Source: an uncultured bacterium (GTDB lineage Bacteria; Fidelibacterota; Marinisomatia; SCGC-AAA003-L08; D37C17). From it: 36,203 nucleotides of DNA. A model generated the notes under the pieces. It saw nothing but the letters and a program-made list of their open reading frames with translations. It was not told the origin of the DNA and did no database searches. Position numbers and translations under genes: made by a program. Position 1 is the first letter of the stretch; each line of letters begins with the position of its first letter. The DNA lies in NCBI GenBank assembly GCA_964552145.1, contig CAZKFO010000003.1, positions 1-36,203 of the forward strand, read 5' to 3'. Of the stretch, positions 573 to 36,177 are shown in pieces.

Positions 573-2138
573 ATGTTTAAAAAATTAAATTTACTTATTA
601 TAATACTTTGCGTTGGGTTTGTTGTTGCAGAAGAATTAACACAAAATCAACAAAAAATCATACAAGAAAAAACTCTTGAAGAGTTTGCAAAAATTATTTT
701 TTCTAACGCGATGGAAGCTAAAAGAGCCTTCCAAGCAGCTCAAGTAAGAGAATTACCTATTGAAAACTTTGCCACTACCGCTCCAATATCTGATTTTATT
801 GCAAATGCAGACATATCAGAAGAACTTGCTGCTGGTGTAGAAAGTGCAACAATGTATGTTTCTACTGATAATCAAAGTACATGGCAATCAAACGCTGCAA
901 GTTTGCTTGGTACTGAAGGATATGAGACGACCTGGGCAAGCGCCATATCAACAAACGGTGGAGCCTCATCTTACTCATATCTTGCAGGGGAGGTTGACTC
1001 AGGAGTTTTGGGGGAAGAATTTGGAACTATTTTAGTTTCTAGTTCGCCTCATAATGTTAATGGAAATTGGCCCCCAGGAAATAATTTATATGCGACTCTT
1101 GCCAATGATCCATCTGGAGATGCTTCCTCAAGCTATGATATTACATCAATTCGCGGAACATATAAGGGTACTAATGCTGTAGATGGTGATGGAAATGAAT
1201 ACACTGATATTGAACGGTTTTATTTAAGCTTATCATTAAATGGTGGATGTTGTGATGAGGGGGGATTTTTTGGTCCATGGTATTTATATGGCATTGGAAT
1301 TGTGAATCCAGAATCTGAGGAAGCTGTTGCATATGCAATTGGATATGGTAATGGGGGCTTCGGTGAATTGTCACCTGGCTTACTTAAAATAAGTGGTGAT
1401 CTTGAAAGTGGTGAAATTGATGGGTTTGACTATATTACAACAAATATTGCATACAGCACTTCCGGTAATGATATGCAAGCAACAGCCCTTATGAGCTACA
1501 TAACTAATGATAGTCAGTGGGGCGTGTGGCCTAATTCATATAATGGATTTATTGTTTTGGGTGTAACGGTTGAGGCGGGGCTAGATGGACTTGATGTGGC
1601 AGCTGAAATTCTGGACCAAACTGATCCTGGATTATTTGTCTGTAATACCGTATTCCAAGAAGGTAATGTACCTCCTGTTTTATCAAATCCTTCATATGAT
1701 GATAATACTAAGGTTTTATCTGTTGATTATATAGATAGCAATGGTAATCTACCATGGTTAAAAATTGCAGAAATAGTAGAAGGAGATGTAGCGTTTACAT
1801 TAGATATGATTCCAAGCGACCATACATATGATGAAGGTGTAACATATTCAGCCAATGTTGATGGATTGGGTTTATCTGGAGAGAATGTGGTAGATTTTAT
1901 TTTCTCAGATGGCGATCAAAGTGCTTTGACTTTTGATTTTAATATAGGGGCGGGTGGCTGTTTAATTGGTGATGCAAATGGTGATACCTTGCTTAATGTT
2001 TTAGATGTTGTGTTGCTAGTTAACCTCGTTCTTGTGGCTGATTCTCCATATGATGAATGCTCTGATCTTAATGGAGATGGAACGCTTAACGTATTGGATG
2101 TCGTGCTGCTAGTGAATATTGTTTTAGGCAACGAATAA
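573..2138 (+). CDS. Secreted protein with a C-terminal dockerin-type tandem repeat; N-terminal domain unknown
   Basis: GGAG-type RBS (ttgaggagagagaATG). N-terminal signal peptide MFKKLNLLIIILCVGFVVA. The C-terminus has two EF-hand-like repeats, GDANGDTLLNVLDVVLLVNLVL and DLNGDGTLNVLDVVLLVNIVLG, typical of type I dockerins. Confidence 0.7.
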   Translation: MFKKLNLLIIILCVGFVVAEELTQNQQKIIQEKTLEEFAKIIFSNAMEAKRAFQAAQVRELPIENFATTAPISDFIANADISEELAAGVESATMYVSTDNQSTWQSNAASLLGTEGYETTWASAISTNGGASSYSYLAGEVDSGVLGEEFGTILVSSSPHNVNGNWPPGNNLYATLANDPSGDASSSYDITSIRGTYKGTNAVDGDGNEYTDIERFYLSLSLNGGCCDEGGFFGPWYLYGIGIVNPESEEAVAYAIGYGNGGFGELSPGLLKISGDLESGEIDGFDYITTNIAYSTSGNDMQATALMSYITNDSQWGVWPNSYNGFIVLGVTVEAGLDGLDVAAEILDQTDPGLFVCNTVFQEGNVPPVLSNPSYDDNTKVLSVDYIDSNGNLPWLKIAEIVEGDVAFTLDMIPSDHTYDEGVTYSANVDGLGLSGENVVDFIFSDGDQSALTFDFNIGAGGCLIGDANGDTLLNVLDVVLLVNLVLVADSPYDECSDLNGDGTLNVLDVVLLVNIVLGNE

Positions 2139-2225: not shown

Positions 2226-3161
2226 CTATTCAATCATTTCATCATTAACGCCTGATAAAATATCTTCTATTCTAATTTCACCAGATTGTGTCATTGATGT
2301 TGCAACCTCTACAACTAATTTTCGTGCACTCATAACATCTTTCTTCTTCATTGGGTTCTCAATTGGAGTATACATCGCCTGTTTCTTTTTAGGAAGCATT
2401 TCAAGAATGGAAGGAACCAATTCTCCATCTACACCCTTTAATGCTTTTGCCAAAACATCTAAATCAATGTCAGGATTAGCCCAAAAATCTGCTGCAATAT
2501 CTTCATTCATAGATAATAAATCATCAAAAGTAAGTAAATATTTTTTTACCTCAGCATAGGTTTCAGGGTCATCATTCATGAGTTGATTAAGATAGCTATT
2601 TGCTTCATCTTCACTCATGGTATTTAAGATGTCTGCTATTTTCTTGCCTCCACCCCTTGAAAATTCTTTGGGCTCTGGCAAGAAGGATGCCTTTTTTTCT
2701 AGTTCTTTTGCAATATTAACCACCATTTCTAAAGGAATGGATTTTAGGCCTCCAAGCTCTTTGATGACTAAATTTTTCATTTCTGATGATAGCTTATTTA
2801 AAAATAAATTTCTCTGTGAATGATCTACTTGGTCAATCGCTAATGCAATAACTGTTTCTTTTTCTGTTTTTAGTAGATAGTGTAACTGTTCATCAGTTAA
2901 ATCATCTAAAAAGTTAAATAAACGAATGGATGATGGTTTACTTTGTTGATATTTATCGGTCATCATTTTGAAATAAAATTCTTCTAATACTATCTTCTTA
3001 AGTGAAACAGGAAGATCTGTAAGTTCTTTAGATCGAATTCTAATTTTTATAATTGCTTCCTCTGGTAAATCCGTAAAAAAGGAAAGGGCTAGCGATTCAC
3101 CATAAACCTGAAATATTATGGCTGCTTTATCTAAACCAGATAAATTTTCATACGTAGTCAT
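2226..3161 (-). CDS. fliG: FliG-like rotor/switch protein (divergent)
   Basis: 311 aa, the length of FliG. The N-terminus LSGLDKAAIIFQVYGESLALSFFTDLPEEAI matches the FliG_N signature (LsG.eKAAilL..lGe..a..v...L..ee). The C-terminus ALKGVDGEL...MLPKKK...SARKLVVEVATSMTQSGEIRI matches the FliG_C layout. It starts 2 nt after the upstream membrane-protein gene. Confidence 0.65.
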   Translation of the reverse strand: MTTYENLSGLDKAAIIFQVYGESLALSFFTDLPEEAIIKIRIRSKELTDLPVSLKKIVLEEFYFKMMTDKYQQSKPSSIRLFNFLDDLTDEQLHYLLKTEKETVIALAIDQVDHSQRNLFLNKLSSEMKNLVIKELGGLKSIPLEMVVNIAKELEKKASFLPEPKEFSRGGGKKIADILNTMSEDEANSYLNQLMNDDPETYAEVKKYLLTFDDLLSMNEDIAADFWANPDIDLDVLAKALKGVDGELVPSILEMLPKKKQAMYTPIENPMKKKDVMSARKLVVEVATSMTQSGEIRIEDILSGVNDEMIE

Positions 3162-3163
3162 AT

Positions 3164-4483
3164 TTATTCTTCCTTCTCTGAATTATTATCATCATTGTCA
3201 CCTGCAATGCCTTCATCTAGCCAATCACTAATAATCTGACTTGCACCTTCTTTTTGCCCAGCACTCATTGTAACAGCTGATTGACGTAAAGAGCGTACTT
3301 CAGATTTTAGCACATCTTGATTCTCTCCGCTTGTAGTTGGAGGGGTGGCGTAGGATGGGGTGGTTTGAGGATCAGGATCTTTGGGTTTTAAATAAACCAC
3401 CTTTTTCTTTCCAAATTTTAATAAAAGAAAACCTGTTAATACACTAACAAAAAATATGATTAATATTATAGCAAACATAGGAATAGAAGACTCACCATTA
3501 AATGATTCAGCTTCTATATTATTATTTTCAGAACCACCTGTTTCTATTAAAGAAAATAAACGCCCCTCTGTATCTTTTGCAGCATCCAATCTTGCTTGAA
3601 TTGACAGCTCATAATCTGATGTCACATTTTCTAAAAGCTGACTTTGTTTTTGTCTATATTCTTTTTCTATTTCCATTAAATTAACATACCTAAGAGAGTC
3701 TAAATTTCTGTCTAATTCTTTCCTTCGTGCTTCTTGGTCTTCCCAAAATTCACGAGCACTAGTAGCCTCATCAAGCTGTCGCTCTAAAAGTTGTTTTTCT
3801 TTGCCATCCATTTCTTTCATATTGTTGAGCTCTTCACGTAATGCTGCTGTTTCCTGCTGAAAAACTGACCATTTAATGGAATCTTTTAGGGCTTCATATT
3901 CAGATACTGTTGATTTAATCACTGCGGTAATAGAATCAAGTTCACTGTTTTGTGTTTTATAACTATTCTTTAAAGGCATTTTATCTAGAACAAAACAATC
4001 AAAACAATTTCTAATTGCTTCAATATTAGTGTTTACAAAGTTGGTGATTGCTTCTCGGGATTCTACATTGTAAATGTTCTCTGATAGATATACCGAAATA
4101 CGGAGGCCGGTCATAATATAATTATCATCTGAATCATCCTTCGCATGACCATTCGAACTGTTTTTTCTTGTTGGGCTACCAGGAAGTGTGGGTAATCCCT
4201 CTAAGCCTAATCCTTCAAAAGGTGAGTAGCTAAATGGATCAACTGTCTCCTTTTTTGAACTTTCTTTTTCTTCTTCTTTTAATTCAACTGCTGTTTTGTT
4301 TTGTAGTTGTACATCCGTATAAACGTAATAATCTACAGGATCATATAGCTTGTTTAAAAAGTTAATGAGCTTTGCGCTATATACTTTTTCTAGCTCAACT
4401 TGCTTTAAAAAAATCTTTGCATCTTGACTAAAGCCTAGCTGCAATGATAAGGTTGCGATTAAGATAATTAAATGTTTTTTCAT
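3164..4483 (-). CDS. Bitopic membrane protein, candidate FliF/YscJ-like ring protein with a periplasmic coiled coil
   Basis: Signal/anchor MKKHLIILIATLSLQLGFS. Two alpha-beta stretches resemble ring-building motifs (LEKVYSAKLINFLNKL..YYVYTDVQL and LRISVYL..REAITNFVNTNIEAI). A heptad-rich segment of roughly 140 aa follows, then a TM helix IPMFAIILIIFFVSVLTGFLLL. The cytoplasmic tail of about 75 aa contains GASQIISDWLDEG, which resembles the FliG-binding C-tail of FliF. Its position directly upstream of the fliG-like gene matches fliF-fliG synteny. Confidence 0.35.
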   Translation of the reverse strand: MKKHLIILIATLSLQLGFSQDAKIFLKQVELEKVYSAKLINFLNKLYDPVDYYVYTDVQLQNKTAVELKEEEKESSKKETVDPFSYSPFEGLGLEGLPTLPGSPTRKNSSNGHAKDDSDDNYIMTGLRISVYLSENIYNVESREAITNFVNTNIEAIRNCFDCFVLDKMPLKNSYKTQNSELDSITAVIKSTVSEYEALKDSIKWSVFQQETAALREELNNMKEMDGKEKQLLERQLDEATSAREFWEDQEARRKELDRNLDSLRYVNLMEIEKEYRQKQSQLLENVTSDYELSIQARLDAAKDTEGRLFSLIETGGSENNNIEAESFNGESSIPMFAIILIIFFVSVLTGFLLLKFGKKKVVYLKPKDPDPQTTPSYATPPTTSGENQDVLKSEVRSLRQSAVTMSAGQKEGASQIISDWLDEGIAGDNDDNNSEKEE

Positions 4484-4501
4484 GCAGACTCCTATAATAC
4501 C

Positions 4502-5239
4502 CTATTTTACACCAAATATTATTTTTATTCTTCTATTTTTTGTTTGTTGTTCTCGTCCATCGTTCATAGATGATATATAATTATCATCTACTTTTCCAGA
4601 TCTTACCTCTGACCATGTGGCACCTGAGGGCCACCTATCAGCATATCCTGATGCTGTGAGTCGACCAGACATAACACCTTTATAAATTAAATAATTAACT
4701 ACATTAGCTGCCCGAGCTGATGATAGTTCCCAGTTCGAAGGATATCGCTTGGCTATTTTACCAACAGGTGGAACATTGTCCGTGTGTCCTTCTACTAAAA
4801 TACTTCGCAAATCATTTGCATTAGACATTAAGCTTTCAACAGCGCTGTCTAGTGCAACTTTTAAATCATCCTTAAGAGTAACAGAGCCCGATCCAAAACA
4901 AATTGATCCATCAAGTTCTAATGCAACACCTCGTGGGTCTTGCGACACTTTTGCTTTGTCCTCTAAGTCCATGTCTTCAATTAATTCTTCTAATTCTTGC
5001 TTGATTTGGGACTGATCCTTTAAAGGTTCATGGGGCATTTCTTGGTCTGTTGATCCGCCTAATTTAGTAGCCTGTGAATTAGCAAAAGCTGCATATTTAA
5101 CAGGGTCTGGTGTAGACATTGAATACAATAACACAAAAAATGCAAATAATAAGGTCATCATGTCTGCAAAGGTTTGCATCCATATTGGTAAACCCTCTTC
5201 AACATTATTATTATTTCTATTTTTCTTCTTAGAAGCCAT
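4502..5239 (-). CDS. motB: Flagellar-type stator protein MotB (OmpA-like peptidoglycan-binding domain)
   Basis: N-terminus LPIWMQTFADMMTLLFAFFVLLYSMS has a single TM helix with the conserved Asp (D26). The C-terminal OmpA-like motifs are ILVEGHTDNVP and NWELSSARAANVVNYL. It lies 1 nt downstream of motA. Confidence 0.85.
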   Translation of the reverse strand: MASKKKNRNNNNVEEGLPIWMQTFADMMTLLFAFFVLLYSMSTPDPVKYAAFANSQATKLGGSTDQEMPHEPLKDQSQIKQELEELIEDMDLEDKAKVSQDPRGVALELDGSICFGSGSVTLKDDLKVALDSAVESLMSNANDLRSILVEGHTDNVPPVGKIAKRYPSNWELSSARAANVVNYLIYKGVMSGRLTASGYADRWPSGATWSEVRSGKVDDNYISSMNDGREQQTKNRRIKIIFGVK

Positions 5240-5240
5240 A

Positions 5241-6038
5241 TTATTCTTCGTCTGTTTTCCTCATTGCTGGTGGAAGATATGCATTTAATCTTTCACGAAT
5301 TTCGATTGGGTGTTTCTTTAATGCCACTAAAATCATACCTTCAGTCATCAATGCACTTTCAACTTTCTTTTGTTCATTTTTACCTTTTAGTTTGTCTGCA
5401 AATGGTAAAAATAAAAAGTTGGCAGCAAACGCACCATACAGAGTAGTAATCAAAGCCACCGCCATAGCACCACCAATATCATCGCCGCCGCTTCCCATGC
5501 CTGCAAGCATATAAATTAACCCTATCAGGGTTCCTATCATTCCAAAGGCTGGGGCATAGGTTCCAAGAGTTTTCATAATATTGACATCTTCACTCTCTCT
5601 TAAATCACGGTAATACTCCGTATTCTCTAAAATGGTTTCTATATCTTCAGGTTTCGTTCCCCCAAGTATTAAACCACACCCATCTTTTACCATATGCATA
5701 CGAAAGGGCATGGATTCTGGTGAACCATCTAACGCGCTTTCTAGGTCTTTTCTGCTTTTTCTGTATGCCTCTGAAAGATTACAAATGTCATCTACTACGT
5801 GACCCAGTGTAAAATTATCATCTTGAAAAATCATTTTTAATAATTTAAAGATATGTAATACTTGTGACATCTTAAATGCAATTGCTGTTGCTGCTAAAGA
5901 ACCACCAAAAACAATTAAAATAGATACTTCATCCCACAAAGATCCAATTGGAACTTTGTTGTTTTCTGCGCCAAGATAGGCTGCAACGCCCATAAGTGCT
6001 GACCCGACTATTAAACCTATAATTGTTCCAAAATTCAT
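5241..6038 (-). CDS. motA: Flagellar-type stator protein MotA/PomA (4-TM, large cytoplasmic loop)
   Basis: Two N-terminal TM helices are followed by a loop of about 100 aa. TM3 reads YAPAFGMIGTLIGLI and TM4 reads VALITTLYGAFAANFLFLPFADKL, with both conserved prolines. The C-terminal MILVALKKHPIEIRERL resembles the MotA tail. Confidence 0.85.
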   Translation of the reverse strand: MNFGTIIGLIVGSALMGVAAYLGAENNKVPIGSLWDEVSILIVFGGSLAATAIAFKMSQVLHIFKLLKMIFQDDNFTLGHVVDDICNLSEAYRKSRKDLESALDGSPESMPFRMHMVKDGCGLILGGTKPEDIETILENTEYYRDLRESEDVNIMKTLGTYAPAFGMIGTLIGLIYMLAGMGSGGDDIGGAMAVALITTLYGAFAANFLFLPFADKLKGKNEQKKVESALMTEGMILVALKKHPIEIRERLNAYLPPAMRKTDEE

Positions 6039-6050
6039 ATTTTATCCTCT

Positions 6051-7463
6051 TTATTTTGTATCTAATTCTGCGGGTTTAAGCTGATTCTTTTTATCTAAAA
6101 GATCTCGCACCTCATCATATTCTGGATCTAATTTTAATGCAATGTTCCAATTAATAGATGCTTTCTGCCTCTCTCCCATACTATAAAAAATTGATCCTTT
6201 ACGAGCATAAGCAATTGATAAATTTGGGTTGATTTCTAGCGCTTTATCAATTTCAATTAATGCTTTATCTAATTCTTGATTGTAATAATATCTCAAAGAT
6301 CGGGCTATATGCCTACTTGCCCTATTAAAGTTTTTAATATCTAAAGCTTGTTGATTATGATGGTAAGATAGAGAGTCTTCTAAGCTTGAAATGTTATGTA
6401 AAAACATAGAATTCTCAATTTCAAGGTTTTCAACAGCAAATGTTAAAAATCTAATGGAATCAGCAATCGCATTATATTTACTATCTGAATCTTGCACCTT
6501 CATATTAAGTGAGTCCATTAACTGAGTAACAGCTTGATGCGTATAAAGAGCCTCGTTTAAATCTTGATTTGTATTACTATCTAAATAGGGATTAACAACT
6601 TTTGACGTGATTTTAGGAGCTCTTTTAGGAACATTCATTTCAAAACCAAAGCATAAAGTTGCTGCATCAGATAAAATAAATTCATTATCATTACCAATTT
6701 TAGAGCGCATGCCAAAATCACCCATGTCGCTAAAATGTACAACCCCCATTGATAATAAATATTCATCTGTTAATGGAATGCGCATACCTAAATTAATACC
6801 TGTTCCATCGTATTCAAATAACAGGCGAATACGGTTTTTTAATCGACGCACTTCTGGAGTTAATAGATTTAATCCAATATATGGCTTCACAATAAACTCT
6901 TCATTGGAAATTAATTCTGATGATGCAACCTGTTTGTCATAACCTATTTTTCCAGTACCAAATCCATAATTCAACATCATAGAATATTTTTCAAAATCTT
7001 TTTCACTGGAAAATAGTGCAAAAAATGATGGGTTTTGTAAGCTTGAGGTGTCATCAACCTGCCGGGCCAAAATATCATTAACACCCACATCAATATTAAT
7101 GTTTCCAACAGAATATACTCGTTTTTGGACATGCAGACCAATTTCAGTTGGCAAGGTATAATCTAAATCAGAATCTATATCGTTTTTTGTTCGAGGGTCT
7201 GATAGGTATGTATAAGAAAATCCTAAATAATAATTATCATTAATATTTGCCTGTAAATAAATTGATGAACTGGCGCTCTTGAGGTCCATATTAACAACCT
7301 CACTAGAAAACCCAACAGAGAACAGTGTTGGGCGACTTGTATCTTGCTCCATCATTGCTCCAGGTGTTCGCAATGTTGATCCTGGTCTTGAAAATGCAAC
7401 CCGTGAATTTGATAGCAAAGTAGATAATAAAATAATAAATAGTAAATAGCGTTTAATTTTCAT
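6051..7463 (-). CDS. Secreted protein: N-terminal beta-rich (outer-membrane-barrel-like) domain, coiled coil and C-terminal TPR repeats
   Basis: Signal peptide MKIKRYLLFIILLSTLLSNSRVAFS. Alternating aromatic/hydrophobic beta-strand patterns occur (YYLGFSYTYL, NINIDVGVN, YSMMLNYGFGTG). The C-terminal TPR-like sequence is ALEINPNLSIAYARKGSIFYSMGERQKASINWNIALKLDPEY. Confidence 0.5.
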   Translation of the reverse strand: MKIKRYLLFIILLSTLLSNSRVAFSRPGSTLRTPGAMMEQDTSRPTLFSVGFSSEVVNMDLKSASSSIYLQANINDNYYLGFSYTYLSDPRTKNDIDSDLDYTLPTEIGLHVQKRVYSVGNINIDVGVNDILARQVDDTSSLQNPSFFALFSSEKDFEKYSMMLNYGFGTGKIGYDKQVASSELISNEEFIVKPYIGLNLLTPEVRRLKNRIRLLFEYDGTGINLGMRIPLTDEYLLSMGVVHFSDMGDFGMRSKIGNDNEFILSDAATLCFGFEMNVPKRAPKITSKVVNPYLDSNTNQDLNEALYTHQAVTQLMDSLNMKVQDSDSKYNAIADSIRFLTFAVENLEIENSMFLHNISSLEDSLSYHHNQQALDIKNFNRASRHIARSLRYYYNQELDKALIEIDKALEINPNLSIAYARKGSIFYSMGERQKASINWNIALKLDPEYDEVRDLLDKKNQLKPAELDTK

Positions 7464-8139
7464 TTGTCATCTCAATTGTTTTTTTATCATATTGCACATA
7501 GGGCAATAAATCACTATCGCTATAATTAGAAATAAATAACGTTATGTTTTCTAAAGCTTCATTGGTCTGTTTTAATTGAACCAAAGCCTTGATTTTGTAA
7601 AATAATAAAATATCTGTTAGTTGGTTATTATCAATAGAATCAAGGTGGCTTAGTGTCTCCTTGTGTTTTTTTGTATAATATAGATTTTGAACATACATCT
7701 CTTCTAGCTCTATGTCATTTTTTATATTTGTTTGTAATATACTGTGTAAGCTTAAAAACTTCCAGTATTCCTTATTTAAAAAGGAATTTTTAAGTATATG
7801 AATTTTATAATCAAGAGATAGGTGCTCTAATAGTTTATCATATGTTTTTGTAATATTAAAATCATTCTTAAGGGGGTTTTTAAACTCATATACAGTTGGA
7901 GCAATAAAGTTATCAGAGTACAGGGCTTTAATATCTTTTTGTCTTGCTGAGGGTTTTGTCTCTAAGGCATCAATATTAAGTTCTTTTTGGTATGTTTCCG
8001 TATTATTTGTTTTGATTACAACTCCCAAATCCCACAACACGTGTTCTGCTGCATATAGATTCATTAGCATGCAGAGTGTTATGCCTAATTTAATGTTGGC
8101 CAATAGTAGATAATTAATCATCATACTGTTCCCAATCAA
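7453..8139 (-). CDS. Hypothetical secreted/periplasmic helical protein (operon member)
   Basis: Hydrophobic N-terminus (NYLLLANIKLGITLCMLMNLYAA). I recognised no family. It overlaps the upstream gene by 26 nt and the downstream gene by 11 nt, which indicates co-translation with the mot genes. Confidence 0.4.
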   Translation of the reverse strand: MIGNSMMINYLLLANIKLGITLCMLMNLYAAEHVLWDLGVVIKTNNTETYQKELNIDALETKPSARQKDIKALYSDNFIAPTVYEFKNPLKNDFNITKTYDKLLEHLSLDYKIHILKNSFLNKEYWKFLSLHSILQTNIKNDIELEEMYVQNLYYTKKHKETLSHLDSIDNNQLTDILLFYKIKALVQLKQTNEALENITLFISNYSDSDLLPYVQYDKKTIEMTNEN

Positions 8140-9157
8140 TAGAATATGAATAGCCTATAAAAGTACCAAAATTAGATGGAATGACTAATTCAAAACTGCC
8201 GATAGCACCAGGTTCAATACTAGAATCTGATTCAATTTGAGAATCAGGCAACACCTGTTTAGATCCCTTGGCAAAAGCGGTTAAAGATTGTGTTTTTCCT
8301 TGCCAGTTCATTCTAAAAACAAAATTAATTTTCACAAAGTCAGCTCGTGCTTCACCTGTGTTTTTAATGTCTCCTCTAAAAATTCTATTTCCCCTAAAAT
8401 CAACTTCTTCTGAAACGTCACCTAATAAAATGGCATTGGCTAGAAGCTTTTTTGCTGTAATTGGTATTTTAGAACCATATTCTTGAATTTCGACAATGTT
8501 CTTTTTTCTAATATCGTCATCACTCATTGTGCTATCTGCGATGTGAGTAATATTTTCCACCACTCTTTTAATGGTGCTTCTTTGAATTGTTAGTTCTCCA
8601 ATTAGAGTTTCAACATATAAAATATCTTGATCTTGATAAACAATTTTTCCATATACGGTTGACCCATTGTTTAAAATGATTTCTTTGTTGTAGATAGAAA
8701 AAGGATTTTCCCAAATTTGTGATTTGGCCTTGAGGGTATATACCTCATCTGTTACGCTTTCAAGTTCTGATTTTAATTTGGTTATTTGATCTTGAAAGTT
8801 CGCTACAACATCTGAGTATGCATCCACCCTGTCATTTGTTGAAAACTCTGATTCATAAGTTAGATTTTCATTGTTATACATATTGTCATCTAATGGATTA
8901 AGTGTGTTGTTTGTAAATATGCTGTCGTTTTCCCAAACCGCATCGTCAATCCAAATATCGCTTGAATCCATTGCAAAGTCACCATTAGTAAAAAGCGAAT
9001 CGCTTGTAAACAAAGAGTCATCTAAAAAGAATGATTCTTCAGATTTATCAATATCAATGTTTTTATCATTTTTTTTAAAAAGTGATGATACTTTTCCACC
9101 ACAGCTTGTTGCAATAAAAAATACTATCGATAGTAATATTGATTTATATTTAAACAT
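8114..9157 (-). CDS. Probable lipoprotein (first gene of the operon)
   Basis: Signal peptide ending IATSC (Cys19), then an acidic D/S/F/N-rich low-complexity linker and a short coiled coil. A beta-rich C-terminal half follows (GKIVYQDQDILYVETLIGELTIQ; ARADFVKINFVFRMNW). No family recognised. Confidence 0.5.
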   Translation of the reverse strand: MFKYKSILLSIVFFIATSCGGKVSSLFKKNDKNIDIDKSEESFFLDDSLFTSDSLFTNGDFAMDSSDIWIDDAVWENDSIFTNNTLNPLDDNMYNNENLTYESEFSTNDRVDAYSDVVANFQDQITKLKSELESVTDEVYTLKAKSQIWENPFSIYNKEIILNNGSTVYGKIVYQDQDILYVETLIGELTIQRSTIKRVVENITHIADSTMSDDDIRKKNIVEIQEYGSKIPITAKKLLANAILLGDVSEEVDFRGNRIFRGDIKNTGEARADFVKINFVFRMNWQGKTQSLTAFAKGSKQVLPDSQIESDSSIEPGAIGSFELVIPSNFGTFIGYSYSIDWEQYDD

Positions 9158-9359
9158 GTTTTACCCTTGTTCTGCCTAATTTATTTGTACTAATAAGTAT
9201 AAAGCCTATGAAAATATTAATAATGTAGAACTATTACCAACAATTTTATGATTTTTACTTGTAGATATTTGTAATAATAACACAATATATAGTATTATAA
9301 AATACTTTATTATATTGCTCCAACCAATATCTTGGTATTAATTTACTCAGACTAATAGA

Positions 9360-11428: not shown

Positions 11429-12252
11429 CTTTGATGTGTAAGCGCTCCAATTGATATGCCGTTAACCCCATCTATATTATATTTTAATATGTTTTTGAGC
11501 GTTATTCCCCCAGAAACTTCAATGAAGATTTTACTATGATTTTTTTTCAGTCTATTAATTTTTTTAATACATTGTTTTATTTCTGGTGGGTCCATGTTGT
11601 CTAATAAAAATGCATCTACAAGCTCCGTGTTGCTGTGTGTGATTTGTTCAACGTTATCAATTTCTATTTGAATGGGTGTTTTGTTTTTTAATTTTTTTAA
11701 TTTTATAAGGACTTTGTCTACGTTTTCCTGAAGGTGGTTATCTTTTATCATAACTCCAGAAGACAAATCTAACCTATGGTTACACCCTCCTCCCTGATAC
11801 ACTGCATATTTTTCAAAAATTCTAAGCCCGGGTGTTGTTTTTCTTGTATCTAATATTTTAATATTTTTGTTATTAATTTTCTCTACATATCTATTTGTAT
11901 TGGTTGCTATGCCAGATAGGTGTTGAATCATGTTTAACACGAGTCTTTCTTTTGTTAAAATTTCTCTTTTGTTTCCATATATGTGTGCAATGTTTGTGTT
12001 TGGTTTTAGCTTATCTCCTTCTTTGACGCTCATTGTGGTTTTAACGGCTTTAGAAAATATGTTTTTAAGGATTGTTGACCCACAAAAAACAATTTCCTCC
12101 CGCGTCCGCACAACATATTTTCCTTTGTCTGTTTTTGGGATAACCGTAAGAGTTGTTAGGTCTCCCGCGGGGATATCTTCTTTCAAAAGCTTGGAAAGTG
12201 TTTTTTTGACAAAATCTTTATTTATTTTATTTATTTGTTTATATAACAGCAT
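11392..12252 (-). CDS. nadC: Nicotinate-nucleotide pyrophosphorylase (carboxylating)
   Basis: Motifs DIPAGDLTT, DTRKTTPGLRIFEKYAVYQGGGCNHRLDLS, IKDNH and ISIGALTH. Confidence 0.9.
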   Translation of the reverse strand: MLLYKQINKINKDFVKKTLSKLLKEDIPAGDLTTLTVIPKTDKGKYVVRTREEIVFCGSTILKNIFSKAVKTTMSVKEGDKLKPNTNIAHIYGNKREILTKERLVLNMIQHLSGIATNTNRYVEKINNKNIKILDTRKTTPGLRIFEKYAVYQGGGCNHRLDLSSGVMIKDNHLQENVDKVLIKLKKLKNKTPIQIEIDNVEQITHSNTELVDAFLLDNMDPPEIKQCIKKINRLKKNHSKIFIEVSGGITLKNILKYNIDGVNGISIGALTHQSQSVDIGLDIES

Positions 12253-12282
12253 TTTTCTAAATCTTTCTTTGTCTTTATAATA

Positions 12283-12714
12283 TTAACTAATTCTATTTAT
12301 TAAAAACCCTTTAATTGTACAGTCTCGTAAGGCTTTTGCTGTTATAGCAATTTGACACATATAGGTTGATGGATATTTGTGGTCTTTTTTATTTTTTTCA
12401 AAAGATTTCCCTAAACATGTTGTTGTTATGCCCTTGTAACCACTATATAGTTTTGAAATATCAAAAAACTGTTCGTGGAGTTTGTCTTGGTTTCCAATTA
12501 GTGGGTTTCCTCCTGTTTTATTTATGTGGTCCTTAATCTCTATAATTTCATCTTGTTTGTGCTTTGGGTTATATGTTTGATCATATATGTTTATTTGGTC
12601 AAACGGTATTTGTTTTATTTTATTAAATATGTTTATGCTCGTTTCACAGTTTATATATATTGCATTTTTTACATAAACCTTATTGTTGTTAAATAAAATA
12701 ATGTTTTTTATCAT
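12283..12714 (-). CDS. Short, degenerate purine-nucleoside-phosphorylase (PNP/MTAP family)-like protein
   Basis: KDHINKTGGNPLIGNQDKLHEQFFDISKLY resembles the PNP motif DHIN..g.NPL.G.nd..g.rF.dms..Y. The protein is only about 143 aa and lacks the N-terminal half. I chose the ATG at 12714, which forms an ATGA overlap with the yggS stop, rather than the ORF-track start at 12765. Confidence 0.35.
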   Translation of the reverse strand: MIKNIILFNNNKVYVKNAIYINCETSINIFNKIKQIPFDQINIYDQTYNPKHKQDEIIEIKDHINKTGGNPLIGNQDKLHEQFFDISKLYSGYKGITTTCLGKSFEKNKKDHKYPSTYMCQIAITAKALRDCTIKGFLINRIS

Positions 12715-15851: not shown

Positions 15852-18054
<2,203 letters not shown>

Positions 18055-18064
<10 letters not shown>

Positions 18065-19101
18065 TTTATAATTTTTATTTTTTTGTTTTCTTCTTCAAAC
18101 ATACCTTTTATGGTGTTTGTGTTTGTTTGTGTTGTTGTTATTATTGTTTGAAATTTACAATGAAAATATACAAAAATTTTCATGATATTTTTATTGTCAA
18201 GTTTGTCAAAAAAATCATCCAACAAAAGGATTGGATTCTTTTTTGTTTTTTGTTTTATAAGGTTCGCTTCGGCTAGTTTTAAAATATGTTTAAATAGTTT
18301 TTTTTCTCCTTGAGATCCGTGTTCTTGTAGGTTTTGTTTTTTATTTTTAAATACTATAGTGTCTGCTTGTGGTCCAAATCGTGTTTTTTCTTGGTTTTCA
18401 ATTTCTTTTAGTTTCTTTGTATATGTTGTTTTGTTGTTGTTGTTGTTGTTGTTAATATATTTAATGTTATATCCTTCTACTTTTATTTCTTTTTGAACTT
18501 TTTTAAATAGTTCTATTATTTCTGTTATTCTTTTTTCTCTTCTTTCCCAAATAGAAATTCCTCTTCTTGCTATTTGTTCATCCCAGGCGGCTGTTTCTTT
18601 TTTCTGTTCTAAAAGGGTGTTTCTATAAATAAGAAGTTTGTTATATTCTTTTACATCTTTGATGTGTTTTTTTTCTATTTTAAAAATTATTTTGTCAAAA
18701 TATTTCATTTTGTCACTTTTATAGCATTCTACTATATCTGTTTCTTCTGGAGACATACAAACCATTGGATTTTCAATTAAAAGTTCTGATGTTTTTTTTA
18801 TTTTTTGATTATTTTTTGTTATTTTTTTTTTGTTCTTTTCTATTTCTATTTTTATTTTTTGTTCTTTTTTTTCCTGTATAAAAAACCCTTGGGCTTGAAG
18901 TTTTTTTGTTCCTTCTTTTAGAATAGCTTTGTTTTGTTTTTTTCTAAAACTTTTTGCTGTAGATAATAAAAAGAGGGTTTCTAAAATTGTGGTTTTTCCA
19001 GCGCCGTTTTCGCCTATTATTATGTTTGTTTCAGGTATAAAATTATAATGTGCTTCTGATGTTTTTCTTATGTTTAAAAAAGAAATTTTTTTTATAGCCA
19101 T
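18055..19101 (-). CDS. recF: DNA replication and repair protein RecF
   Basis: Walker A GENGAGKTTILE, signature GSQGEKKLF and Walker B ILLLDDFFDKLD. The protein is very Lys/Asn-rich. Its start overlaps the dnaN stop (TAATG). Confidence 0.85.
18433..18453. repeat. (GTT)7 trinucleotide microsatellite inside recF, encoding Asn7 on the minus strand
   Basis: Seven perfect gtt units were read directly at 18433-18453. Two more units lie just upstream, separated by tt. Confidence 0.95.
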
Positions 19102-20222
19102 TAATCATTTAATCTGATCGGCATTAACAAAATAAGCTTGTCTGTTTTGGTTTCTTTGTTTTTTTCAGATATTATTGCTGCGCTTAGAGCAGAATTTAAA
19201 AACATGTTTATTTTATTAGATTCTATTGCCGTCAACGCATCTAAAACAAAGTTTGCATTAAAGCCTATTTTAAGATCTTCATCACTATTAAAAAGACATT
19301 CTATTTTTTCTTTCCCTGAGGCTGAATTTTCAGCGTCCTCTGTTGTTAACTCTAATCTTCCTGATTTAATATTAAATGTTATTTGTTTTGTTGCTCTGTT
19401 TGAAAAAATAGATACTCTTTTAATTGCGCTTATAAGGTCTTTCTTGTCTATTGTTAATGTTTTGTTGTTGTCTAAAGGTATAACCTTTTCATAGTCTGGG
19501 TAGGTGTCTTTAATTATTTTTGAAAAAAGAGAAACCTTTTTATAAGATAAAGACATATAGTTTGAAGAAAGTTCTAATTCTATGTTCTCTGTCTTTTCTA
19601 TTAAGCTTGAAAGAATGGTTAAAAATTTCATGGGAGCTATAATTTCAATCTCTTGGTTTTGTAGTGTTTCTTGTTCTCCTATTATCCTAGACAGCCTGTG
19701 TCCATCTGTAGAAACTCCCAGTATTTGACCTTTGTTTATTTTTAATAAAACACCTTGGAGGGCAGGTTTTAACTCGTCTTTGCTTGTGCTTGTTTTTGTA
19801 AAATCTATTATTTCTAATAACTTTTCAGTGTTAATTGTTAAACCAATAGAGTCTTTCATCGTTGGGTCAGAAGGAAATTCTTTATAATCTTGCCCTGTAA
19901 TAGAAAATGTTCCCGTTGTTGTTTCTAGTACTAAAATATTTTTTGAAGAAAGATCTAGCTTAACTTCTTGGTCTCTAATATTTGCTATTATTTCTAACAA
20001 CCTATTGATAGGTATTGCTATGGGGTCTTGTGGTTTGTCTCCGACATAATCAACATTTACACTAATAGAGGTTTCAAGGTTTGTTGATTTTATAGTAATA
20101 TGATTTTCACTAAAATCAAAATAAGCACACCCCAAAATCGGAAGCGTTGACCTTGAGGGAACAACTTTTATGATTTGTTGCAACCCCTCTAAGAATTCGT
20201 TTGATTTTACAGTGATTTTCAT
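19101..20222 (-). CDS. dnaN: DNA polymerase III beta sliding clamp
   Basis: 373 aa. The N-terminus MKITVKSNEFLEGLQQIIKVVPSRSTLPILGCAYF matches the beta-clamp consensus (r.t.PiL). The length suits three domains. Synteny is dnaN-recF-gyrB. Confidence 0.9.
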   Translation of the reverse strand: MKITVKSNEFLEGLQQIIKVVPSRSTLPILGCAYFDFSENHITIKSTNLETSISVNVDYVGDKPQDPIAIPINRLLEIIANIRDQEVKLDLSSKNILVLETTTGTFSITGQDYKEFPSDPTMKDSIGLTINTEKLLEIIDFTKTSTSKDELKPALQGVLLKINKGQILGVSTDGHRLSRIIGEQETLQNQEIEIIAPMKFLTILSSLIEKTENIELELSSNYMSLSYKKVSLFSKIIKDTYPDYEKVIPLDNNKTLTIDKKDLISAIKRVSIFSNRATKQITFNIKSGRLELTTEDAENSASGKEKIECLFNSDEDLKIGFNANFVLDALTAIESNKINMFLNSALSAAIISEKNKETKTDKLILLMPIRLND

Positions 20223-31180: not shown

Positions 31181-31183
31181 AAT

Positions 31184-31498
31184 TTAATTTTCAAGAAGGC
31201 AGTTGGATAGTTTAAAAAAAATATTTGATATTTGACTATAGTCAATGTTGATTGTTTGGGGTTTTATTATGACACCAACAGGGGACTTAAGGTCGTTTTT
31301 ACACATTGTTGAAAAAACATCTCGACAGCGACGCTTTAGAAGGTTTCGATCCCTTGCAGACCCCAACTGCCTCGGGACAATAAAGCCTAAACAATTATTA
31401 TCATACAAGCTATATATAAGAGTTAAATCTTTATTTTTAATATAGTTTGGAGAGCTGATTATATGATTGAAAACAGACTTATTAATAGAAAACTTCAT
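31184..31498 (-). CDS. rnpA: Ribonuclease P protein component
   Basis: LGFIVPRQLGSARDRNLLKRRCRDVF matches the RNase P protein RNR motif. It is immediately downstream of rpmH. The ATG at 31498 overlaps the rpmH stop (TGATG). Confidence 0.8.
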   Translation of the reverse strand: MKFSINKSVFNHIISSPNYIKNKDLTLIYSLYDNNCLGFIVPRQLGSARDRNLLKRRCRDVFSTMCKNDLKSPVGVIIKPQTINIDYSQISNIFFKLSNCLLEN

Positions 31499-31632
31499 CA
31501 AGCAGACAATACTTTTCTACCTTTACGTCTTCTCCTTGCCAACAATGCGCGACCTGCTTTTGATGCCATTCTTGACCTAAAGCCATGCTTGTTCTTTCTT
31601 TTTCTATTACTTATTTTTATTTTTATTTTCAT
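31498..31632 (-). CDS. rpmH: 50S ribosomal protein L34 (absent from the supplied ORF track)
   Basis: My hand translation of the minus strand gives [44 protein letters not shown] (44 aa). The L34 signature is KHGFR.RM....GR..L..RR.KGRK.LS. Confidence 0.9.
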
Positions 31633-31707
31633 TATTATATACCTTAAATATCAAAGGGGCTCAAATATAGTACACTATTTACTTAGATAAAAAATAATTT
31701 ATTATAA

Positions 31708-32106: not shown

Positions 32107-32133
32107 CAAAAAAGGCGCTTATAAAAAGCGCCC
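32107..32133 (-). terminator. Rho-independent terminator after the small-peptide gene
   Basis: On the minus strand the hairpin is GGCGCT-ttttata-AGCGCC (plus-strand stem arms at 32114-32119 and 32127-32132), followed by TTTTTTG. Confidence 0.65.
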
Positions 32134-32144
32134 TTTAAAGTTTT

Positions 32145-32372
32145 TTACCAACCCTTTTTGGGGGGTCTAATTTTTCGACGTCTACGATGCCTTCTTTTTC
32201 TAAAGGTTTTATCATCACCATCATCAGAGTGATCCTCTGTAACAGACTCAACAGACAAGTGAGAATTGTAACCATACCAATCCAAGGCACCTTGTTTATT
32301 ATAACTAGTTGCAGCTGTCGATAAAGACACCATCAACAAATAAACGAATAATATATATATAACTTTTTTCAT
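32145..32372 (-). CDS. Small secreted protein with an acidic centre and a polybasic C-terminus
   Basis: The 75-aa protein has signal peptide MKKVIYILFVYLLMVSLSTAA, then DHSDDGDD, then FRKRRHRRRRKIRPPKKGW. It has its own terminator. No family recognised. Confidence 0.4.
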   Translation of the reverse strand: MKKVIYILFVYLLMVSLSTAATSYNKQGALDWYGYNSHLSVESVTEDHSDDGDDKTFRKRRHRRRRKIRPPKKGW

Positions 32373-32433
32373 TTTTATATCCCTACAATAATATATAGAC
32401 TAAATTTCATAAAGTCAAGATAAACAGAAAAAA

Positions 32434-32787
32434 TCACTTTTCCTGCTTTTTCCACTCTAGGGGGGTTATGGTTTCACAAATAATTTCAACCCTTCGTTGT
32501 CGAATATTATTTTTATCTACCCAAGACTGTGAATGTATTCGACCCTCCACATAAAGAAGTTGTCCTTTAACAACATATTCTTTAATAAACTCTGCAAGCT
32601 TATTCCAGGCAACCAAAGAATGCCATTCAACATGTTCCTTTTTATTCTTTTCAGCGTCCAAGCGAACTTCATTCGTTGCTAGGGATAGAGTAGCAACAGG
32701 ATGTCCTGTTGTAGTATATTTTAGTTCGGGTTGCTGTCCAACATGTCCAACTAAAATAACTCGGTTAATACTGTTTTTAGAAATCAT
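32434..32787 (-). CDS. ssb: Single-stranded DNA-binding protein, OB-fold only (no C-terminal acidic tail)
   Basis: Motifs INRVILVGHVGQQPELKYTTTGHPVATLSLATN, VEWHSLVAWNKLAE and LYVEGRIHSQSW. It is 117 aa and ends ...PLEWKKQEK. Confidence 0.8.
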   Translation of the reverse strand: MISKNSINRVILVGHVGQQPELKYTTTGHPVATLSLATNEVRLDAEKNKKEHVEWHSLVAWNKLAEFIKEYVVKGQLLYVEGRIHSQSWVDKNNIRQRRVEIICETITPLEWKKQEK

Positions 32788-32804
32788 AACTTAACTTATT
32801 TTTT

Positions 32805-34815: not shown

Positions 34816-36177
34816 CTATGTTTTATTTGATATTTTACTAATTAGCTCATCAATTTTTGTTTTAAAAGCCAAATCTTTATCCATTTTATTTTCAATGTTT
34901 TTACATGCATGGACTACAGTAGAGTGATCACGCCTACCTATCTTTTCTCCTATGGTTGCCAACGGAAACGATGTTAGTTCTCTCGATATAAACATAATTA
35001 TTTGACGCGCCAGAGCAATATCTTTTCTTCTTGATTTTCCCCTAATATGACGCTCAGGGGTTTCCATATGAGATGCTACCAGCCGCATAATTGTATCAAT
35101 ATTAATATTTTCTATAACACTTTCTCCCACCATTTCCTTTAACACTTTTTTTGTTAAATCCATATCTACATCAATTTGTTTTAGAGATGAGATAGCTAAC
35201 AAGCGCACCATAACCCCCTTCATTTTTCTAATATCATTTTTAATTGTTGAAGCAATAAACTCAGTAATTTTATAATTAATTTGTAGATTGTTTGCCTCTG
35301 CATCGTTCATTAATATTGCAACGCGTGTTTCAAAGTCTGGAGGTTGAATATCTACTATAAGGCCTGATTGAAATCTTGAAATTAGGCGATCTCGAATTCC
35401 ATGTAATTCATTGGGATGACGGTCTACAGTTAAAACAATTTGTTTGCCTTTTTCATATAACGCATTAAAAAGATGAAAAAACTGTTCTTGAGTTTGCTCT
35501 TTAGATTCAAAAAACTGTACATCATCAATTAGCAAAATATCTGAGGCCCTATATTTATTTGCAAAGTCTGTTGATTGATTTTTTTGTATTGAGCTTATAA
35601 ATTCTAACATAAATTTTTCACTTGTTAAATATGTGATTTGAAACTTTGGGAAGCGCTTTAATAGTAAATTACCAATTGCCTGCAATAAATGTGTTTTTCC
35701 TAAACCAGTTTCACTATATAACAACAAGGGATTAAAAGGAGTGTTTCCTGGTGTATCAGCAACAGAGCAACATGCTGCTTTTGCAAATTGATTATCTTTT
35801 CCCTCTATGAACGTTTCAAAGGTATATCGTTGATTAAAACTATTATGATTATATTTGTTTTGTAATACCTTCGCGTTGTTTTTTTTATCAAATGATGGAA
35901 TTTCTGTTGTAGTTTTTGATGAAACAGGAATAGTGTAGTTTACCACCAAAGGGTATGATAATGTTGACTTAATAGCATCATCAATTAAATTATGATATTT
36001 AGACTCTAGCCAATCATAATGAAATTTATTGGGTACCAACAAGGTTACTTCATCTTTCGTTATATTGGCCACCTTAACATCATAAAACCATGTTTGATAG
36101 GCGGTTTCTTGAATTCGATCCTTAATATAGGCTAAGCATTTATCCCAAAACTCTTCTATGTTAATTTTTTCATCCAT
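34816..36177 (-). CDS. dnaA: Chromosomal replication initiator protein DnaA
   Basis: AAA+ Walker A SETGLGKTHLLQAIGN and Walker B ILLIDDVQFF. The box VII region and the C-terminal DNA-binding HTH GRRDHSTVVHACKNIE are present. Length is 453 aa. Confidence 0.96.
   Translation of the reverse strand: MDEKINIEEFWDKCLAYIKDRIQETAYQTWFYDVKVANITKDEVTLLVPNKFHYDWLESKYHNLIDDAIKSTLSYPLVVNYTIPVSSKTTTEIPSFDKKNNAKVLQNKYNHNSFNQRYTFETFIEGKDNQFAKAACCSVADTPGNTPFNPLLLYSETGLGKTHLLQAIGNLLLKRFPKFQITYLTSEKFMLEFISSIQKNQSTDFANKYRASDILLIDDVQFFESKEQTQEQFFHLFNALYEKGKQIVLTVDRHPNELHGIRDRLISRFQSGLIVDIQPPDFETRVAILMNDAEANNLQINYKITEFIASTIKNDIRKMKGVMVRLLAISSLKQIDVDMDLTKKVLKEMVGESVIENINIDTIMRLVASHMETPERHIRGKSRRKDIALARQIIMFISRELTSFPLATIGEKIGRRDHSTVVHACKNIENKMDKDLAFKTKIDELISKISNKT

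Follow-up and report, generated by a model that had tools for sequence, protein, structure and literature searches.

A conserved seven-gene operon of Marinisomatota encoding FliG-like, FliF-like and MotAB-type proteins: a probable non-flagellar rotor-stator machine of the cell envelope

Results

The operon and its boundaries

The subject of this analysis is a seven-gene operon in an uncultured bacterium of the Marinisomatia (GenBank assembly GCA_964552145.1, contig CAZKFO010000003.1, positions 1 to 36,203 of the forward strand). This whole stretch of 36,203 bp is called the window below. The operon combines genes for a FliG-like protein, a truncated FliF homologue and a MotA/MotB stator with genes for three further envelope proteins. 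We argue that its products probably form a self-contained, envelope-spanning rotor-stator machine which is not a flagellum and which is coupled to the outer membrane. A machine of this general kind had been proposed by an earlier reading of the DNA from its letters alone (the sequence-only reading).

The seven open reading frames (ORFs) lie tightly packed on the minus strand and span positions 2226-9157. The first gene, G1 (8114-9157), codes for an outer-membrane-type lipoprotein of 347 amino acids. It is followed by G2 (7453-8139), coding for a secreted helical protein of 228 amino acids that resembles tetratricopeptide repeat (TPR) proteins and has a TTG start codon, and by G3 (6051-7463), coding for a protein of 470 amino acids with a predicted outer-membrane beta-barrel, a helix and TPR repeats. 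The fourth and fifth genes specify the stator, with a MotA/PomA-type A subunit (5241-6038, 265 amino acids) and a MotB-type B subunit (4502-5239, 245 amino acids). The sixth gene, G6 (3164-4483), codes for a bitopic protein of 439 amino acids that is the truncated FliF homologue, and the seventh (2226-3161) for a three-domain FliG-like rotor protein of 311 amino acids. Recomputed from the coordinates, the gene junctions measure -26, -11, +12, +1, +18 and +2 nt. The gene limits, the minus-strand arrangement and the junction sizes are those given by the sequence-only reading.

The two boundary elements of that reading are present as well. A hairpin terminator on the minus strand (2166-2197), with a stem of 12 bp that is preceded by an A run and followed by a T run, is situated between the FliG-like gene and a convergent dockerin-like gene and is common to both. 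At the other end, an A+T-rich intergenic region (9158-9359) separates the operon from the divergent panD gene and is the presumed promoter region. Promoter-like matches in this region were no commoner than in shuffled sequence, and consequently no promoter is claimed for the operon.

The FliG-like protein

The product of the last gene matches all three FliG domains of Pfam above their gathering scores, namely FliG_N (residues 6-71, 34.3 bits), FliG_M (91-159, 31.9 bits) and FliG_C (193-298, 70.2 bits). The FliG equivalog model TIGR00207 gave 81 bits against a cut-off of 226.7, so that the equivalog level is not reached. The identity to canonical FliGs is 20-24%, and the protein could be aligned to the FliG of Thermotoga maritima (1lkv) with an E-value of 1.2e-17. 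A glycine-rich linker, SRGGGK, occupies residues 168-173.

The FliM-binding motif of FliG has been lost. At the position of EHPQ the window protein reads EKET (residues 100-103), and the equivalent of R160 is E135. EHPQ was present in 21 of 24 canonical FliGs, in none of 21 Marinisomatota FliG-like proteins and in none of 45 fused proteins described below. Throughout the Marinisomatota family the EHPQ...R signature is reduced to E...E.

The charges of the torque helix are kept in part. In E. coli FliG the torque-helix charges that face MotA are K264, R281, D288, D289 and R297. The corresponding region of the window protein, residues 240-276, reads ALKG...LPKKKQAMYTPIENPMKKKDV and keeps K242 (within ALKG) and lysine clusters at 258-260 and 271-273. 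Positive charges like K264 and R281 are retained by the family, and the FliG-like proteins of the deep clades also retain acidic residues at the D288/D289 positions and an arginine pair near R297.

The stator

MotA scored 82.8 bits with the Pfam model MotA_ExbB. Among the NCBIfam models, PomA (142.9 bits) was far ahead of ExbB (18.6 bits) and TolQ (14.6 bits), and a Tol/Exb identity of the stator was ruled out by these scores. PomA was also the best equivalog score, and it lies under the cut-off of 341, so that no PomA, MotA or MotP equivalog can be called. The nearest solved structures are flagellar stators (6ysf, E 2.4e-32; PomA 8bri, E 3.9e-28). As judged from these scores and structures the stator is of the flagellar kind and not of the Tol/Exb kind.

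The charged loop of MotA, YRKSRKDLE, comprises residues 92-100 (nt 5739-5765). Its arginine and the (D/E)LE motif are conserved across 21 aligned family members; they correspond to R90/E98 of E. coli MotA and R88/E96 of PomA. Of the four transmembrane (TM) helices of MotA, the third is PAFGMIGTLIGL and the fourth contains ALITTLYG. Both are PomA-like (GMIGTL and ALITT), a resemblance on which we do not rely for Na+ coupling. MotB matched the Pfam models MotB_plug (62.5 bits) and OmpA (54.2 bits), and it thus has a plug and an OmpA-like peptidoglycan-binding domain; its match to the MotB of 6ysf has an E-value of 9.8e-27. The TM aspartate, D26 in FADMMT, is invariant in the family alignment.

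Two small insertions were observed beside these features. The MotA proteins of the window clade have six additional residues, ESMPFR, straight after the charged loop that faces FliG (residues ~101-113, window 5700-5738). The FliG-like proteins of the same broad group carry an insertion of their own, two residues (NP) in the C-domain.

G6, a truncated FliF homologue

The AlphaFold2 (AF2) model of G6 rests on 35 homologues and has a mean predicted local distance difference test score (pLDDT) of 67. In this model a signal-peptide-like N-terminus (residues 1-21) is followed by an RBM3-like split domain with the succession alpha-beta, insertion, beta-alpha-beta (22-170, nt 3974-4420), by one unbroken helix of 137 residues with pLDDT >90 (179-315, nt 3539-3949) and by a single TM helix (336-357, nt 3413-3478). 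The cytoplasmic tail (388-424, nt 3212-3322) consists of two short helices in which LRQ and W421-L422 are invariant. There is no space for RBM1 and RBM2: the RBM3-like domain begins after only about 21 residues, and it is the sole globular domain predicted. In the membrane/supramembrane (MS) ring of flagella RBM1 and RBM2 are the FliF domains around the export gate.

Single-sequence searches of Pfam, NCBIfam and PDB gave nothing useful for G6, nor for G1 and G2, and the FliF relationship of G6 was revealed by profile-profile comparison alone. For this comparison six canonical FliFs were taken from the ordinary flagellar loci of the genome scan described below. Hhalign aligned residues 15-172 of G6 with residues 225-421 of FliF, that is RBM3 and its beta-collar insertion (probability 96%, E 4.3e-9), and residues 298-426 with residues 384-531 of FliF, that is the second TM helix and the C-terminal tail (P 0.0025). 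With the tail alone the value was P 1.9e-4. The tail motif, ...GASQIISDWLDE, parallels the canonical ...NPxxxAQLVRxWLxE, and its tryptophan is invariant. In a Foldseek search with the G6 model, entries of the FliF MS-ring ranked first (best E 7.4e-3). We use this search only in support, because all E-values were >1e-3 and OsmC/Ohr folds were intermixed with the FliF entries. From these comparisons we conclude that G6 is a truncated FliF homologue which keeps only RBM3, the second TM helix (TM2) and the tail.

Two conserved elements lie within the RBM3-like region. A periplasmic CxxC motif (residues 160-163, window 3995-4006) is invariant and takes the place of 'RGD' in the last RBM3 strand of FliF. 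At the position of the FliF beta-collar (residues ~84-104, window 4172-4234) a conserved sequence DPFGY..EGLGL.G.LPT.PG was observed.

Outer-membrane and periplasmic proteins

All 11 family members compared have the lipobox cysteine of G1, Cys19. Behind it the protein continues with a disordered linker and a short coiled coil, and two conserved domains follow, a small beta domain (residues 149-200) and a C-terminal one (~240-347). The one family matched, in 11 of 11 members, was an N-terminal domain from Leptospira to which no function is assigned; a G1 profile gave no match in the PDB. The window copy of G2 showed weak TPR matches. In the deep clades its orthologues consist of a coiled coil and TPR_6, with weaker YfiO-like and TolA_bind_tri-like matches, which is a layout like that of CpoB/YbgF. 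There G2 is often tandemly duplicated, as in the loci L031 (3075-5070), L032 (3379-5203), L034 (4205-5736), L035 (4081-5609), L036 (4557-5620) and L037 (4105-5608).

For G3 the AF2 model (mean pLDDT 79) predicts a beta-barrel (residues 46-279, nt 6627-7328) and a periplasmic helix of 86 residues (309-394, nt 6282-6539). TPR repeats follow at residues 398-458 (nt 6090-6272) and were matched by the Pfam models TPR_2 and TPR_1. The top Foldseek matches of G3 were the 12-strand porins NanC/KdgM (E 1.7e-5, probability 1.0).

Most of the proteins that the sequence-only reading had named were thus recovered: the lipoprotein by its invariant lipobox, the secreted helical protein as TPR-like, the barrel-like TPR protein by model, porin match and Pfam, and the MotA/PomA-type stator, the MotB with TM aspartate and OmpA-like domain and the full-length FliG-like protein by profile hidden Markov models (HMMs). 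Its bitopic protein with a FliF-like tail gave no match with the Pfam FliF models at E <=1. The claim itself was strengthened by the profile comparison, since the RBM3 region also proved FliF-homologous.

Conservation across Marinisomatota

A genome scan in which each GTDB species was represented by one genome yielded 34 loci of the Marinisomatota FliG-like family and 11 ordinary FliG loci from other phyla. In a collection clustered at 90%, 617 homologues of the FliG-like protein were found, and the named ones belong to Candidatus Marinimicrobia. The labelled records among the family loci are assigned to Neomarinimicrobiota or Marinimicrobia, with the exception of two Lentisphaeria. In every one of the 34 loci with enough flanking sequence the order is G1, G2, G3, MotA, MotB, G6, FliG, and it holds down to a FliG identity of 33%; the sequence-only reading had asked for such a synteny in other genomes. 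No additional gene is conserved beside the operon across the family loci.

All seven genes showed ratios of nonsynonymous to synonymous substitution rates (dN/dS) of 0.02-0.37, values that are rough because dS was saturated in all but the nearest pair. Given these ratios and the constant order down to 33% FliG identity, the operon belongs to the core of the phylum and is kept by selection; it is no relic.

Two kinds of irregular record were encountered. The loci L031 and L032 come from metagenome-assembled genomes (MAGs) labelled 'uncultured Lentisphaeria bacterium' and carry a full operon of the Marinisomatota type with 38-39% FliG identity; either these records are mislabelled or the operon has a broader range of hosts. 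In L006, a pilon-polished long-read contig of 1.8 Mb, G3 (7023-8419) and the FliG-like gene (11499-12432) are each present in two pieces. The split genes are probably assembly frameshift errors rather than pseudogenes.

Fused FliF-FliG relatives

The FliG-like protein was searched against 1.84 billion representative proteins. The 24 matches at E <=1e-30 are mostly full-length or fragmentary proteins similar to the Marinisomatota form. Next in the ranking, mostly ahead of the canonical FliGs, came about 45 clusters of proteins of 560-725 amino acids with a FliG-like C-terminal half. Their N-terminal half begins with a hydrophobic stretch, continues with an RBM3-like domain and a TM helix and then has a helix like the FliF tail, and hhalign matched it to the G6 family with a probability of 99.3% (E 2.6e-20). 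The fused proteins share the E...E replacement of EHPQR. They are without the long helix of G6, which is an insertion relative to them. No curated family exists for these proteins. Where the source is labelled, it is a MAG under the name of Fibrobacterales, Saccharospirillaceae/Pseudomonadales or Pseudomonadota; genomes with the fused type include GCA_047518385.1, GCA_022968985.1 and GCA_043820105.1.

Seven fused-type loci from such MAGs and from unlabelled metagenome contigs, with fused proteins of 608-724 amino acids, were examined: L052 (5251-7263), L053 (10001-11920), L054 (4043-5962), L055 (998-3172), L056 (5890-7917), L057 (10001-11827) and L058 (10001-11980). They represent six distinct contexts, as L053 and L054 hold the same protein. 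A gene for a TPR lipoprotein adjoins the fusion gene in all six, and motAB genes adjoin it in four; three of these four also code for a secreted protein whose barrel presumably lies in the outer membrane. Counted by locus, MotAB is present in five of the seven and the secreted protein in four of these. The remaining two contexts have no adjacent motAB and contain small barrel proteins with weak OMP_b-brl matches in Pfam. The rotor gene precedes the stator genes in the fused-type loci, unlike in the Marinisomatota operon.

The outer-membrane protein of the fused loci was also compared with the operon proteins. It showed no demonstrable homology to G1 (P 0.33), and its match to the G3 barrel was weak (P 7.5e-4, probability 25%). 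A strong match of TPR to TPR (E 4e-23) was of a generic nature.

Fused proteins and operon are alike in that both have an RBM3-like domain, a TM helix and the tail motif of FliF type, and in both the FliG-like part shows E...E; they differ in that the former are one polypeptide, have no long periplasmic helix and stand in another gene order. The single polypeptide of these relatives speaks strongly, if indirectly, for G6 and the FliG-like protein being physical partners that work as a unit. As the fused loci show the combination of rotor, stator, TPR and outer-membrane proteins in other lineages, this theme is not confined to one phylum.

Flagellar genes in related loci and published genomes

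The canonical loci of the same scan show the order fliE-fliF-fliG-fliH-fliI, which was never seen in the family loci. In the Pfam-annotated flanks of the related loci (+/-10 kb) no flagellar genes were found. Another non-standard context of FliG was observed in a Bryobacteraceae and a Terriglobia MAG (L040, 2668-4089; L041, 9959-11377), in which a FliG of canonical length is directly followed by a FliN-like ORF of 113-117 amino acids and no FliF lies upstream.

Supplementary Dataset 3 of a published study (PMC10359470) lists HMM calls for each MAG, the MAGs being incomplete and the genes being fliG, fliM, fliN and che genes only. In the parts of that table considered here, fliG is called in 11 of 15 Marinisomatota MAGs, and fliM, fliNY, cheA, cheB and cheR are called in none of the 15, among which are MAGs with a completeness of 93%, 90% and 88%. 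Five MAGs in two parts of the table carry fliG only, and all five are Marinisomatota; the other MAGs with fliG there also have fliM or fliNY (PMC10359470).

The surrounding window

Outside panDBC, no flagellar, chemotaxis or type III secretion genes were found by Pfam among the other window ORFs of >=120 amino acids. These ORFs comprise a ppdK fragment, the dockerin-like gene, nadC, gyrBA, recF, dnaN and genes for SurA-like proteins, and furthermore mfd, mnmEG, yidC, queF, a two-component pair and dnaA. The panDBC genes were identified by tblastn matches to Pfam-annotated pan genes of related loci. The sequence-only reading had listed panDBC, ppdK and a dockerin protein as neighbours and had seen no other flagellar genes within 36 kb; the neighbours were found again, ppdK as a fragment, and what the Pfam scan returned were housekeeping genes only. 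Scans of the window for tRNAs and with Rfam gave no matches.

The dockerin-like gene (573-2138, plus strand) is convergent with the operon and codes for a secreted protein of 521 amino acids with two C-terminal dockerin-type repeats, which scored 22.5 bits with the Pfam model Dockerin_1, slightly below its cut-off. It is kept at this position in most loci with a FliG identity of at least about 46% and was not detected there in deeper clades. Positions 12000-36203 are the neighbourhood of the replication origin, with dnaA (34816-36177), dnaN (19101-20222), recF, gyrB, gyrA, yidC and mnmE/G; dnaA and dnaN are about 14.6 kb apart. A kilobase of high A+T content (GC 0.25) lies at 18001-19000, and stretches of >500 bp without any ORF of >=120 amino acids are found at 31181-31707 and 32110-32804.

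Discussion

The proposed machine

We propose that the operon codes for the following machine. G6, with its ring-building domain RBM3, its second TM helix and its presumed FliG-binding tail, would form a ring through RBM3. The N-domain of the FliG-like protein would dock on the two-helix cytoplasmic tail of G6, and the FliG-like protein would line the cytoplasmic face of the ring. Stator units of the MotAB/PomAB type, anchored to the peptidoglycan by MotB, would draw on an H+ or Na+ gradient and act on the FliG-like protein by pushing its charged C-domain, and this would most likely turn the G6/FliG ring of the inner membrane. The periplasmic RBM3 ring and the helix of about 20 nm would pass the movement on to G3, G2 and G1, which the ring, raised or prolonged by this helix, would contact beneath the outer membrane. 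The machine would have no export gate, rod, hook or filament and no FliM/FliN switch. No adhesin, secretin or axial protein was found linked to the operon. Our best guess for the output is mechanical work on the outer membrane or the cell surface, which could be non-flagellar motility, the movement of surface proteins or the upkeep of the outer membrane.

As stated above, an envelope machine other than a flagellum had been suggested at the outset. This suggestion is supported by the HMM matches, the constant operon, the fused relatives, the lost FliM motif and the presence of fliG in the absence of fliM, fliN and che in the published table as far as it was considered (PMC10359470).

Several points speak against the proposal. 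The ring, its rotation and the contacts with G1, G2 and G3 are inferred. Neither YscJ_FliF nor YscJ_FliF_C of Pfam matches the window G6 at E <=1, and the latter matches only 2 of the 35 G6 family members, with a best E of 0.024. Every Foldseek E-value for G6 exceeds 1e-3, the AF2 model is of medium confidence (mean pLDDT 67), and the long helix makes it ambiguous where the ring domain stands with respect to the membrane. In the window clade the torque-helix region has a deletion of four residues where D288/D289 would fall. Finally, the published table covers fliG, fliM, fliN and che genes only, in incomplete MAGs (PMC10359470), and a lack of export gate, rod, hook and filament genes in whole genomes is presumed; besides, 'flagellar assembly' genes, which are not named, have been reported in Marinimicrobia MAGs (bioRxiv 10.1101/2020.06.03.132969).

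Alternative explanations

We considered three alternatives to the rotor-stator machine. First, the operon could code for a force transducer of the Tol-Pal or TonB type which has no large spinning ring. The MotA5B2 units would turn on themselves and tug a small G6/FliG oligomer, and the long helix, comparable to domain II of TolA or to GldM, would pull the outer-membrane proteins in the service of outer-membrane upkeep, division or transport. G6 is indeed bitopic and has a helix of 137 residues. The G2 proteins of the deep clades have a coiled coil and TPR_6 as in CpoB/YbgF and a weak TolA_bind_tri match, the set of partners, with its outer-membrane barrel, its TPR proteins and its lipoprotein, is like that of Tol-Pal, and no axial structure is encoded. 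Against this, the stator is of the flagellar type and not TolQ/ExbB (142.9 bits for PomA, 14.6 for TolQ), a complete three-domain FliG and the ring-building RBM3 have been retained under selection, and the long helix is wholly missing from the fused relatives. In every case known to us three-domain FliG and RBM3 parts form large rings. We consider the transducer unlikely, although it fares best among the alternatives.

Second, the operon could be a dispersed part of an ordinary flagellar regulon, the remainder of which lies elsewhere and for which these would be the only fliF, fliG and motAB genes of the cell. Some sources annotate the FliG-like protein as flagellar motor switch protein FliG, and the 'flagellar assembly' genes reported for Marinimicrobia MAGs would fit, but they may be just motAB and fliG of this operon. 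However, RBM1 and RBM2, the domains that encircle the export gate in flagella, are missing from G6, and EHPQR is missing from the FliG-like protein. Furthermore, the genes of the family always lie beside outer-membrane and TPR genes and never beside fliE, fliH or fliI, and fliM, fliN and che are missing from 15 of 15 Marinisomatota MAGs in the parts of the published table considered (PMC10359470). Such a dispersed flagellum is therefore very improbable.

Third, a decaying remnant of an ancestral flagellum that is functionless at present is hardly credible: a flagellated ancestor is plausible, flagella occurring in other phyla of the FCB (Fibrobacteres-Chlorobi-Bacteroidetes) group, and genes are split on one long-read contig (L006), but these frameshifts in a pilon-polished assembly are probably errors, and the conservation data contradict a remnant, with intact ORFs in constant order in 34 loci down to 33% identity, dN/dS of 0.02-0.37 and invariance of the MotB aspartate, the MotA loop charges and the tryptophan of the G6 tail.

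Comparison with known systems

With the core of the flagellar motor the operon shares the three FliG domains, the RBM3, TM2 and FliG-binding-type tail of FliF, MotA and MotB of the flagellar clade, and the adjacency of a FliF-like and a FliG-like gene. The charged MotA loop is kept, and the charges of the FliG C-domain are kept in part. In contrast to the flagellar core, RBM1, RBM2 and EHPQR are absent, and a helix of 137 residues lies between RBM3 and the TM helix of G6. The genes fliE/H/I/J/M/N and those for export gate, rod, hook and filament are not linked to the operon, in which the genes are instead always linked to those of G3 (outer-membrane barrel/TPR), G2 (TPR) and G1 (lipoprotein). 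With the flagellar equivalog models the scores stay far under the cut-offs (FliG, 81 bits against 226.7; PomA, 143 against 341).

Tol-Pal and ExbBD-TonB resemble the proposed machine in having an ion-driven inner-membrane stator of the 5:2 type and a bitopic protein whose periplasmic helix is long. Common to them are also partners in the outer membrane, lipoprotein partners and a coiled-coil/TPR protein like CpoB. They differ in that the A subunit of the operon belongs to the flagellar clade and that the stator would drive a cytoplasmic FliG-like protein on a FliF-like anchor and not a TM helix inside the stator. TolA, TonB, TolB and Pal domains were not found by Pfam in the operon proteins.

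A motor of the MotAB family, an elongated periplasmic carrier and outer-membrane components are also found in GldLM/PorLM of the type IX secretion system and gliding and in AglRQS-Glt of Myxococcus, and GldLM occurs in the same FCB superphylum. We know of no FliG or FliF relative in either system, and searches of Pfam and NCBIfam revealed no homology of the seven proteins to GldL, GldM, Agl or Glt. Zorya (ZorAB) likewise has a MotAB-family pair that works outside the flagellum. PADLOC gave no ZorA match, a generic ZorB similarity of MotB only, and no ZorC, ZorD or ZorE, and because of the missing ZorA match the operon is not regarded as Zorya. As far as sequence comparison can tell, the operon is thus not Tol-Pal, ExbBD-TonB, GldLM, Agl-Glt or Zorya.

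In the literature on FliG- and FliF-like proteins outside flagella and on motility in Marinisomatota/SAR406 and Fibrobacter we found no description of the system. In a phylogeny of MotAB published in 2025 the clade of the flagellar type counts as flagellar, and neither Marinimicrobia nor hosts without flagella are mentioned there. We are probably dealing with a flagellar rotor and stator put to non-flagellar use, and there is a fair chance that this is a new class of machine. The chances are about even, in our estimate, that it is a previously unrecognised class of nanomachine, in which a minimal rotor of FliF(RBM3) and FliG is driven by flagellar-type MotAB and wired to an outer-membrane barrel, TPR proteins and a lipoprotein, neither a secretion system nor a filament being part of it. 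We put it equally in the balance whether this class is universal in Marinisomatota, with split genes and a stalk of about 20 nm, and occurs in fused form in the MAGs labelled Fibrobacterales and Pseudomonadota.

Significance

To our knowledge FliG and FliF have been found only as parts of flagella, and the operon, if correctly interpreted, would show this rotor in a role outside the flagellum for the first time. It would mean that the rotor-stator module of the flagellum can exist and work apart from type III export, whether it has branched off from the flagellum or is akin to the flagellar precursor. This touches the old question of a torque module separate from the type III secretion core, and the answer shapes models of the origin of the flagellum. 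The fused single-protein rotors are compact candidates for structural and heterologous study.

For the organisms themselves, there is a practical consequence and a biological one. Surveys of motility that score fliG, motAB or the KEGG category 'flagellar assembly' can miscall Marinisomatota. These bacteria (SAR406) rank among the most abundant of the uncultured lineages that live in the dark ocean and in oxygen-deficient zones, and a machine of the class described here would power an envelope process in them, for example a non-flagellar motility of abundant deep-ocean plankton or the dynamics of the outer membrane.

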